A stretch of 49,262 nucleotides of DNA from assembly GCA_031274005.1 (NCBI GenBank), contig JAISQU010000157.1, positions 1 to 49,262 of the forward strand. Direction: 5' to 3'. Within the stretch, counting starts at the first letter, position 1. Every line of letters starts with the position of its first letter. The translations under genes and the position numbers were made by a program. Below, piece by piece: positions 26,471 to 27,288 of the stretch. The notes below the pieces were generated by a model, which did not search any database, was not told the DNA's origin, and worked only from the letters and a program-made list of their open reading frames with translations. The stretch comes from Spirochaetales bacterium. GTDB taxonomy: Bacteria; Spirochaetota; Spirochaetia; DTKZ01.

Positions 26471-26613
26471 AAGGAGAAGGGGGGATTCGAAACGAGCCTT
26501 CGCCGACCGGGAGGGAGGAAAAGGCGGCAGGGATGCCGCCGGCAGAGGGCGAAGGCGGGTCTGCGGGAGCGAACAGGAGGTTCGCGACTGGAGACCGGTT
26601 CCCCCCTTCTCCG
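26471..26613 (+). repeat. tRNA-linked GC-rich structured repeat, copy A (full length)
   Basis: It starts with GGAGAAGGGGGGATTCGAAAC, an inverted copy of the tRNA 3' end. The core has hairpins GGCGGCA-GGGA-TGCCGCC and GCGAAC-AGGAG-GTTCGC. It ends in CCCCCCTTCTCCG, a direct copy of the tRNA-Ser(UGA) 3' end. Confidence 0.7.
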
Positions 26614-26670
26614 CGAAGGCATTCAGCAGCCGTGTGCTTCCTGGTGGTTAAGGTTTAGCAAACCGGTAAT

Positions 26671-26735
26671 GGGGGGGGGGTAGAAACGAGCCCCCGCCGG
26701 CCAGCGGGAGGAAAAGCGCGCGGCAGTTTAGCGTT
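26671..26735 (+). repeat. tRNA-linked repeat, copy D (degraded; begins with a G10 run)
   Basis: G10-TAGAAACGAGCCCCCGCCGGCCAGCGGGAGGAAAAGCGCGCGGCAG aligns to the 5' half of copies A-C. One hairpin arm plus loop is deleted. Confidence 0.55.
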
Positions 26736-26749
26736 ATAGACGACCAATT

Positions 26750-26837
26750 GGAGAGGTGCGAGAGTGGTCGAATCGGGCTCCCTGCTAAGGAGTTGTATCC
26801 CAAAAGGGTACCGGGGGTTCGAATCCCCCCCTCTCCG
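26750..26837 (+). tRNA. tRNA-Ser (anticodon GCU)
   Basis: Acceptor GGAGAGG/CCTCTCC, anticodon stem GCTCC/GGAGT with loop CTGCTAA, long variable arm, T arm GGGGG-TTCGAAT-CCCCC, discriminator G. Confidence 0.9.
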
Positions 26838-26841
26838 TAAA

Positions 26842-26866
26842 ACGGCGTTTGCTGCCGTGTTTTTTT
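26842..26866 (+). terminator. Short hairpin plus T7 run after tRNA-Ser(GCU)
   Basis: ACGGC-GTTTGCT-GCCGT followed by GTTTTTTT. Confidence 0.45.
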
Positions 26867-26900
26867 CGTGTTGGGTTAAGGCTTTAGAAAGCCGGGCAAT

Positions 26901-27030
26901 GGGGGATTCGAAACGAGCCCTCGCCGACCAACGGGAGGAAAAGGCGGCATGGATGCCGCCGGCAGAGGGCGAAGGCGGGTCGGAAGGAGCGAACAGGACG
27001 TTCGCGACTGGAGACCGACCCCCCTCTCCG
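26901..27030 (+). repeat. tRNA-linked GC-rich structured repeat, copy B (full core)
   Basis: Near-identical to copy A over more than 100 nt. Hairpins are GGCGGCA-TGGA-TGCCGCC and GCGAAC-AGGAC-GTTCGC. It ends in CCCCCCTCTCCGTA, which matches the 3' end of tRNA-Ser(GCU) rather than that of tRNA-Ser(UGA). Confidence 0.7.
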
Positions 27031-27033
27031 TAT

Positions 27034-27107
27034 GTGCCCATAGCTCAGTTGGATAGAGTACCAGATTGCGGATCTGGTGGTCGGAGGTTCGAACCCTCTT
27101 GGGCACG
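27034..27107 (+). tRNA. tRNA-Arg (anticodon GCG)
   Basis: Acceptor GTGCCCA/TGGGCAC, D arm GCTC-AGTTGGATA-GAGT, anticodon stem CCAGA/TCTGG with loop TTGCGGA (U33, G37), T arm GGAGG-TTCGAAC-CCTCT, discriminator G. Confidence 0.85.
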
Positions 27108-27114
27108 TTTTTTT

Positions 27115-27202
27115 GGAGAGATGCGAGAGCGGTTGAATCGGGCGGACTCGAAATCCGTTGCGCCGCATTGCGGCGCCGAGGGTTCGAATCCCTCTCTCTC
27201 CG
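27115..27202 (+). tRNA. tRNA-Ser (anticodon CGA)
   Basis: Acceptor GGAGAGA/TCTCTCC, anticodon stem GCGGA/TCCGT with loop CTCGAAA, long variable arm (GCGCCGCATTGCGGCGC), T arm GAGGG-TTCGAAT-CCCTC, discriminator G. Confidence 0.9.
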
Positions 27203-27288
27203 AAGGAGATGGAGGGATTCGAAACGAGCCCTCGCCGACCGGCAGGGAGGAAAAGCGCGCAGGGATGCGCGCGGCAGAGGGCGAAACA
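27203..27288 (+). repeat. tRNA-linked repeat, copy C (3'-truncated)
   Basis: It starts with GGAGATGGAGGGATTCGAAAC, an inverted copy of the preceding tRNA 3' end. It has the same core as A and B, but the hairpin is GCGCGCA-GGGA-TGCGCGC (three compensated pairs). Similarity ends after GAGGGCGAA. Confidence 0.65.

Follow-up and report, generated by a model that had tools for sequence, protein, structure and literature searches.

The window considered here is positions 1 to 49,262 (49,262 nucleotides) of contig JAISQU010000157.1 (GenBank assembly GCA_031274005.1) from a Spirochaetales bacterium. A cluster of tRNA genes on its + strand hosts a family of repeats, whose copies occupy the spacers behind three tRNA-Ser genes and are probably units of a small, highly structured insertion element devoid of genes. 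One unit measures about 140 nt, or about 190 nt including its spacer (range ~140-190), and comprises, in this order, an optional spacer that often harbors a terminator-like hairpin, a left arm, a core of ~100 nt and a right arm. The left arm, whose last base is the complement of T54, is an inverted copy of the host tRNA segment that extends from T54 in the 3' direction; the right arm repeats this tRNA in direct orientation from C56/R57 of the T-loop to the 3' end.

Upstream of the cluster lies a sigma-70-like promoter (TTGACA-17-TATATT, 26337..26365, +), identified as a consensus match only. The host of copy A is tRNA-Ser(UGA) (26385..26471, +; called by ARAGORN, 55.9 bits with the Rfam tRNA model), and the copy trails it at 26473-26613 (+). 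The left arm of copy A (IR-L, 26473..26491; inverted repeat I2, 100% complementary) is placed 3 nt past tRNA-Ser(UGA) and complements, over 19 nt without a mismatch, the T-loop, T-stem and acceptor 3' strand of this tRNA in inverted orientation. The conserved core (26492..26596), defined by its minimum free energy (MFE) fold and by covariation, contains the helices P3 (26496-26504 paired with 26548-26556) and P6 (26558-26562 paired with 26592-26596) and the hairpins hp1 (26523..26540, GGCGGC-AGGGAT-GCCGCC) and hp2 (26569-26585). The right arm (DR-R, 26597..26613) is a direct copy of the tRNA-Ser(UGA) 3' end (CCCCCCTTCTCCG). A second, truncated unit, copy D (26614..26725, +; alignment A1, repeat family D2), carries a degenerate terminator-like spacer and a small hairpin, GGTTAAGGTTTAGCAAACC; its left arm is decayed, and of the core the 5' portion is present as far as GGCAG, with a deletion of the loop and second arm of hp1.

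Copy B is hosted by tRNA-Ser(GCU) (26749..26838, +; ARAGORN and Rfam) and is preceded by an element-borne spacer (26839..26892, +), recognized by terminator scan and empty-site comparison, in which the scan places a terminator-like hairpin with a T-run at 26842-26866 (+). The copy itself is full length (26893..27032, +), with its left arm at 26894-26912, hp1 at 26943-26960, hp2 at 26989-27005 and right arm at 27019-27032; it scores 141.7 bits with the covariance model R1, built from copies A and B, and 126.8 bits with R2, built from the matches of R1. It is followed by tRNA-Arg(GCG) (27033..27108, +) and tRNA-Ser(CGA) (27114..27203, +), both called by ARAGORN and Rfam. The latter hosts copy C (27205..27285, +; inverted repeat I7, R2 76.8 bits), of which only the 5' half is present, the 3' half being replaced; its left arm (27205-27223, +) is 89% complementary to the tRNA end and its hp1 (27255-27272, +) has a GCGCGC stem. 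Copies A and C are 87.7% identical across 81 nt by BLAST. Further downstream on the + strand are tRNA-Ser(GGA) (27459-27547) and the signal recognition particle (SRP) RNA gene (27568-27666).

Fold and covariation of the repeat unit

An earlier note on this DNA had singled out hp1 in copies A, B and C as a hairpin kept by three compensatory base-pair exchanges. Its letters and positions are confirmed: GGCGGCA-GGGA-TGCCGCC at 26523-26540 in copy A, GGCGGCA-TGGA-TGCCGCC at 26943-26960 in copy B and GCGCGCA-GGGA-TGCGCGC at 27255-27272 in copy C. Between A/B and C, stem positions 2-4 are changed (G>C, C>G, G>C) and the partners 6', 5' and 4' are changed with them, all being compensated, and the flanks AAAA(G) and GGCAGAGGGCGAA are the same in the three copies. 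Copy D was also correctly described, as it reads AAAAG-CGCGC-GGCAG (within 26676-26725), i.e., a single C-type arm joined to GGCAG without the loop and the second arm. Loss of this hairpin by slippage is plausible since GCGCGC is its own reverse complement, so that the arms double as direct repeats. Regarding the origin of the two stem types, the GGCGGC-AGGGAT hairpin can also be found at the tRNA-Asp gene of a sister species, where hp1 is identical to that of copy A including its unusual 6-nt loop AGGGAT, and the GCGCGC type at tRNA-Ser positions of two sister species. Because of these recurrences, A/B and C are two stem-variant lineages of a mobile element circulating in the genus, and not one hairpin altered in place.

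When folded as a single strand, copy A adopts a three-way junction with an MFE of -88 kcal/mol (z = -7.1). The fold is closed by pairing of IR-L with DR-R; hp1 forms the tip of one junction branch and hp2, with the same loop, that of another. In an alignment of 74 copies representing 55 loci, pairing in hp1 amounts to 91.8%, and both partners vary in 5 of the 7 hp1 pairs and in 44 of the 47 pairs of the whole structure. For the latter, the covariation score is 0.50 as compared with 0.156 in shuffles (0 of 500 shuffles reach the observed value) and at most 0.10 when the partners are slid by 1-3 columns. The 74-copy alignment was fitted to the covariance model, and two independent checks were hence made. 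In the first, a model-independent analysis of 32 diverse copies with MAFFT and RNAalifold, the same helices including hp1 are recovered, with double changes in 28 of 33 pairs. In the second, a pattern scan of the whole collection in which the 4+4 inner stem letters were left free, the four pairs are Watson-Crick throughout in 77 of the 89 matches, with 30 different arms; by chance, ~0.4% of matches would be so paired.

The earlier note had argued for selection on pairing and not on stem sequence, and the covariation seen throughout the family in the 74-copy alignment, the free-stem pattern scan and RNAalifold agrees with this. It had also proposed collecting further copies from the genome and its relatives; pairing of hp1 is kept in the ~190 non-redundant copies obtained. 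Among these, the stem letters vary freely (at least 30 arms), the loop C-AGGA-N-G is fixed, and so are the flanks, GAGGAAAAG before and G-CAG after the hairpin. The loop consensus shared by hp1 and hp2 is C-A(G/C)GA-N-G, and tandem G.A motifs can be found in helix P4 (CCGA/GAGG) and in the internal loop beneath hp2. As in structured non-coding RNAs, compensatory changes support the secondary structure, and hp1 offers a clean natural case of conserved pairing with free sequence. A small open reading frame (ORF) starting at an ATG in the loop was considered and rejected: the loop N is T in just 44 of 89 matches and the frames differ among copies.

Perfect pairing could also be a mutational by-product, in which template switching during replication of a quasi-palindrome copies one arm onto the other without any structural selection. 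Such switching reportedly makes and corrects hairpins (work of Ripley, of Lovett, and of Löytynoja and Mönttinen), and several features of hp1 are in line with it: hp1 and hp2 contain almost no G.U intermediates, the three changes from copy A to copy C are contiguous, and the A and C arms differ at 6 of 14 positions as against 4 differences in ~67 flanking nucleotides. Alone, it would not hold the place, length and loop of the hairpin in ~190 copies across phyla as the stem letters turn over, and the longer-range P3, P6 and closing stem, which are beyond short-range switching, covary too. Template switching may well generate the changes but fails to explain their retention, and as a full account we consider it improbable.

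The wobble pairs bear on the strand that folds, although their signals are mixed. They are scarce as G.U in hp1 and hp2; over all well-paired inner positions, 71 G.U are found on the + strand as compared with 39 A.C (p = 0.003 with related copies counted as independent). Taken together, the wobble data point to a + strand folded as a single strand, for which RNA is the simplest candidate and folded single-stranded DNA (ssDNA) is possible. The earlier note had left the choice between an RNA helix and a protein-bound palindrome; the former, in the broader sense of a folded single strand, is favored, whereas a double-stranded palindrome bound by protein is unlikely considering the free stem, the conserved loop and the excess of G.U over A.C on the + strand. 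The same asymmetry bears on whether hp1, followed by CTTTTCCTC, is a transcription terminator for the minus strand. In a consensus scan, hp1 does score as terminator-like on that strand in each of copies A, B and C, but the T-run comprises just four T, no minus-strand gene reads into the sites, a terminator does not need a conserved loop sequence and the wobble pairs favor the + strand. Hardly any credence can be given to a terminator role, and the terminator-like score is judged incidental.

Arms, tRNA hosts and distribution

All copies with a recognizable upstream gene trail a tRNA on the same strand. Fifteen amino-acid identities are represented, Ser and Met being the commonest. The tRNA 3' segment flanks the insert on both sides as a direct repeat of 18-20 nt, sometimes extending into the trailer (47-91 nt). 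A host resembling transfer-messenger RNA (tmRNA) can also be found in the window's genome (contig C47:4639-4761, -; locus L235), where the copy lies behind an apparent tmRNA 3' end (…GGTTCGAATCCCCTATCCTCCA) that was recognized by eye, with no ARAGORN gene call. The hp1 region of this copy is divergent. The first unit at a locus begins 0-82 nt past the tRNA and later units follow in arrays with a period of ~185-190 nt, containing up to 5 copies by match coordinates with ~97% identity between neighbors; this local amplification is recent. Five near-identical tandem units are present in genome G384 both at C1:3216608-3217503 (L232) and at 2259344-2260220 (L229), behind tRNA-Pro(GGG) and tRNA-Asn, with periods of ~189 and 185 nt, respectively.

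The left arms match the T-loop of their own tRNA at 95%, as compared with 78% for tRNAs of other amino acids, and the T-stem at 81% as compared with 55%. The acceptor part follows the own tRNA weakly (35% vs 26%), and completeness of the left arm shows a weak trend with distance to the tRNA (rho = -0.25). A T-run can be found ~10-20 nt ahead of the left arm, followed by an A/T-rich stretch, and many spacers contain terminator-like hairpins; such signals are compatible with every unit being a separate transcription unit. The element was also considered as a tRNA, tmRNA or pseudo-tRNA in its own right, and this was rejected as neither ARAGORN nor Rfam gives a call on either strand.

These arms raise the possibility of a host-serving small RNA gene that mimics tRNA, the closing stem copying the acceptor/T-arm minihelix. 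Ribonuclease P, 3' trimming and CCA-adding enzymes would process this RNA, which would act on the maturation, decay or sensing of the neighboring tRNA, its spread being secondary. The closing stem of copy A indeed reproduces the acceptor and T stems (7+5 bp) together with the discriminator base, conservation of the core extends across phyla and includes tandem G.A motifs, a feature typical of RNA loops that bind proteins, and the G.U excess is on the + strand. The T-run and A/T-rich stretch bracket the units like separate transcription units, and the same tRNA-Ser positions are filled in distant families. Against this, most copies cannot form an acceptor-like helix given the 35% match of the left-arm acceptor part against a background of 26%, and the element is dispensable, since most of the phylum's genomes lack it, as do seven genomes of the same family. 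The copy number (1 to 23) and tandem arrays moreover resemble selfish amplification. A host-serving tRNA mimic is consequently regarded as conceivable but unlikely.

Concerning distribution, R1 gives full-length matches in 17 of 61 related genomes, and of the 401 Spirochaetota genomes sampled, 43 contain the element according to R2. Between 7 and 23 copies are present in each of six genomes, five of them complete and the sixth in 30 contigs. The hosts named by the pattern scan are Spirochaetota (Treponema, Spirochaetaceae, Gracilinema, Treponema primitia ZAS-10), together with Mucispirillum/Deferribacteraceae and a few other metagenome-assembled genomes, with model scores of 60-122 bits. A Bacteroidota origin, which hits to the Flavo-1 RNA motif had suggested, was rejected in view of these Spirochaetota hosts. 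The distribution is patchy and crosses phyla. In the window's genome, BLAST finds no copies beyond the cluster; the covariance model finds two more, behind tRNA-Lys(CUU) and the tmRNA-like gene. The element was found in none of the viral contigs, phage records and plasmids searched. With Rfam 15 at gathering threshold, the window and four named loci yield just tRNA, SRP RNA and Flavo-1, and the element alone at E <= 10 gives only noise (8-14 bits). A full-text literature search returned no description of such elements, and the family is apparently undescribed and uncatalogued.

Insertion, movement and related systems

The Ser-Ser-Arg-Ser-Ser-SRP cluster is kept across the class, which allows spacers to be compared. 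In seven genomes of the window's family, the spacers measure 11-16, 1-2, 4-11 and at least 37 nt (a compact arrangement summarized as Ser-12-Ser-1-Arg-8-Ser), as compared with 277, 194, 5 and 255 nt for the corresponding spacers of the window; a sister species has 146 and 208 nt at the first two. Considering the compact cluster of relatives from the same family, this sequence comparison shows that the copies are insertions. The empty site behind tRNA-Ser(GCU), CTCTCCGTA|TGTGCCC, is identical to the right junction of copy B, and just 1-2 nt are present at the position of the copy B spacer in same-family genomes. It follows from the junction that the whole 193-nt block was inserted, including the 54-nt spacer with its terminator-like hairpin. 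The same spacers have been filled independently in other lineages. Two further empty-site searches were set aside: around a tRNA-Met locus compared in 17 congeneric species, synteny has diverged too far, and the search for the tRNA-Lys copy is uninformative owing to rearrangement of this locus in the window's genome.

Such insertions disrupt compact tRNA operons. In the window, the terminator-like hairpin of copy B (26842-26866) separates tRNA-Ser(GCU) from the tRNAs and SRP RNA that follow, and splits what is in relatives a single compact operon, so that transcription of tRNA-Arg, tRNA-Ser and SRP RNA would need read-through or another promoter.

Evidence for movement between tRNAs comes from the cores. 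In a tree of 159 cores with the arms removed, 70 changes of tRNA type are counted as compared with 106-111 in the first five label shuffles. The ~78-nt 5' core of the tRNA-Lys(CUU) copy in the window's genome is near-identical (2 substitutions and 3 one-base indels) to that of a tRNA-Met copy in a sister genome (G002), and the arms of each match their own tRNA, including variable T-loop letters. Because near-identical cores behind different tRNAs carry host-fitting arms, the arms appear to be re-templated from the target and not slowly tuned by point mutation.

Considering the fold and its covariation, the position behind tRNA/tmRNA genes, the insertion, the tandem amplification, the patchy spread across phyla and the related cores behind different tRNAs with matching arms, all of which are borne out by the data, hp1 is probably one helix in the conserved core of a small insertion element that lacks genes, is highly structured and colonizes tRNA and tmRNA trailers, its pairing being kept for the element's own propagation or function. 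The three-way junction is closed by pairing of the two arms, and its remaining branches are capped by hp1 and hp2. In both hairpins, the stem sequence is free as long as it pairs, and the loop is shared. In the simplest reading, two copies of one factor, or a dimer, would read both loops on the folded single strand. This strand would most likely be a + strand transcript, with folded ssDNA as the alternative, and the arms would be templated from the target when the element moves. If this is correct, the tRNA genes of gut and termite spirochaetes carry widespread small structured parasites or partners absent from databases, many assembly breaks and "odd repeats" beside tRNA genes would be accounted for, and the re-fitting of the arms to each new tRNA would constitute a targeting principle. 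The conserved twin loops provide a handle for finding the partner factor.

Several points weigh against this interpretation of a mobile, factor-read element. Transcription of the element is something we infer from its sequence, and the reading of the loops by a trans-acting factor is likewise a supposition. The scarcity of G.U in hp1 (3 of 511 cells) and hp2 (4 of 426 cells) is unusual for a constraint acting purely on RNA and fits hairpins that are recognized or regenerated as DNA. The outer closing stem looks like neutral decay, since G.U (66) is about as common as A.C (58) there. Empty and filled sites were compared between species of one family. Core identity between loci of one genome is at most 78-82%, so that copies at different loci are old and movement between loci is slow. 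Finally, neither a linked gene nor an enzyme of movement was found in the 55 loci and the two recombinase/transposase families profiled. The large serine recombinase PF07508 is present in 7 of 43 element-positive and 47 of 358 element-negative genomes and is absent from G399, G384, G369, G375, G430 and G358, and the Y1 transposase PF01797, which 21 of the 43 element-positive genomes and 131 of the 358 element-negative ones possess, is absent from the copy-rich G384, G430 and G375; neither shows a useful association. A Y1-transposase-like ORF (257 aa) was noticed in G399 (C1:3456598-3456930, -) at ~2 kb from an element copy (3458941-3459077), and this proximity is probably a coincidence because no association holds across genomes.

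An alternative, which we hold to be doubtful, is that of a self-addressing mobile nucleic acid whose core is a scaffold and whose arms are exchangeable guides pairing with both strands of the tRNA T-arm/acceptor segment, re-templated at each target, with widespread host enzymes or an unrecognized factor doing the work. If true, this would be programmable insertion without a dedicated protein gene, matching no described transposon, integron or guide-RNA system.

Conceptually, the element is closest to T-loop-class integration sites, the tyrT trailer repeats, repeats of the miniature inverted-repeat transposable element (MITE) or repetitive extragenic palindromic (REP) type and folded single-strand substrates, and it fails at least one defining feature of each. 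With the tRNA/tmRNA T-loop-class sites of tyrosine integrases and their gene-poor derivatives, it shares the 3' tRNA/tmRNA target, the direct repeat from the T-loop to the 3' end that keeps the tRNA intact, and tandem stacking. Unlike these, it measures ~190 nt only, without an integrase or any other gene, and adds an inverted target copy, a conserved folded core and arms re-fitted to each tRNA. As in tRNA-targeting integrative elements, a tRNA 3' direct repeat is present on both sides; no integrase is carried or adjacent.

This likeness brings up the possibility that the units are inert scars, i.e., attL/attR remnants of integrase-driven islands or phages once present at these tRNA genes. The stretch covered by the direct repeat, T-loop to tRNA 3' end, corresponds to the classic block of identity at T-loop-class sites, a class said to have been defined by Williams in 2002; tmRNA is also targeted, as illustrated by the tmRNA-like copy, and tandem stacking is known at such sites. 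A ~100-nt core that crosses phyla with conserved loops and compensatory changes is, however, unlike a decaying scar, and ordinary attachment sites lack an inverted target copy. No integrase, cargo gene or other gene was found within or adjoining the units at the 55 loci, the 140-190-nt units contain no ORF, no protein family recurs beyond shared local gene context, and the viral contigs, phage records and plasmids gave no match. An origin as scars is therefore rated as very improbable.

The E. coli tyrT trailer repeats (rtT region) are tandem non-coding units behind a tRNA, each with a copy of the tRNA 3' end, that are co-transcribed and processed. In contrast to the present element, which is found at 15 tRNA types across phyla, rtT is confined to one locus and has neither an inverted arm nor a two-hairpin core; no sequence or structure match exists, and the Rfam scan, which probably includes rtT, was negative. 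Like MITEs and REP repeats or bacterial interspersed mosaic elements (BIMEs), the element is short, non-coding, GC-rich, multi-copy and intergenic, with hairpins or terminal inverted repeats and a presumed dependence on trans factors. Its inverted ends are derived from the host tRNA and copied from the target instead of being fixed transposase sites, and the duplicated target is 18-91 nt long; a parent element was sought in the collected loci only. In addition, it lies strictly behind tRNA/tmRNA genes in a single orientation, and Y1 (RAYT-type) transposases are absent from several copy-rich genomes.

Integron attC sites and the CTX-phage attP site used by XerCD resemble the element in that pairing is conserved over stem sequence, stems are near-perfectly Watson-Crick and a closing stem rebuilds the double-stranded chromosomal target. 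They differ in that the element rebuilds one half of the T-arm site only and contains no cassette gene, and in that no recombinase was found linked to it in the loci and families profiled, its ssDNA form being purely hypothetical. With the TwoAYGGAY RNA motif (RF01731), the element shares two hairpins with a purine-rich loop in common, and copies B, L004 and L034 (AUGGAU/AUGGAC) fit AYGGAY. Most element copies, by contrast, have the 5-nt loop AGGAN and a three-way junction closed by tRNA-derived arms, and a cmscan search with this motif gives no hit at E <= 10.

Further features of the tRNA cluster

An AT-rich perfect hairpin, CAGATTTTTTCACATGAAAAAATCTG (27289..27314, +), occupies the place expected for P6 and hp2 of copy C. 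In a sister species, an element copy (L019) contains a near-identical hairpin in its 5' part, at about 355-385. The hairpin could represent a further palindromic insertion of very small size, or else a terminator moved by recombination. All four tRNA-Ser isoacceptors are gathered in the one cluster, where they enclose the tRNA-Arg with a genomically encoded GCG anticodon (27033-27108) and are followed by the SRP RNA; this gene order is conserved throughout the class. In this spirochaete host, Rfam also reports two Flavo-1-type motifs above the gathering score of 42, at 27326-27406 (+, 62.9 bits) and at 49182-49251 (-, 50.7 bits), each closely followed on its own strand by a tRNA gene, namely tRNA-Ser(GGA) starting at 27459 and tRNA-Lys(UUU) at 48936-48864.

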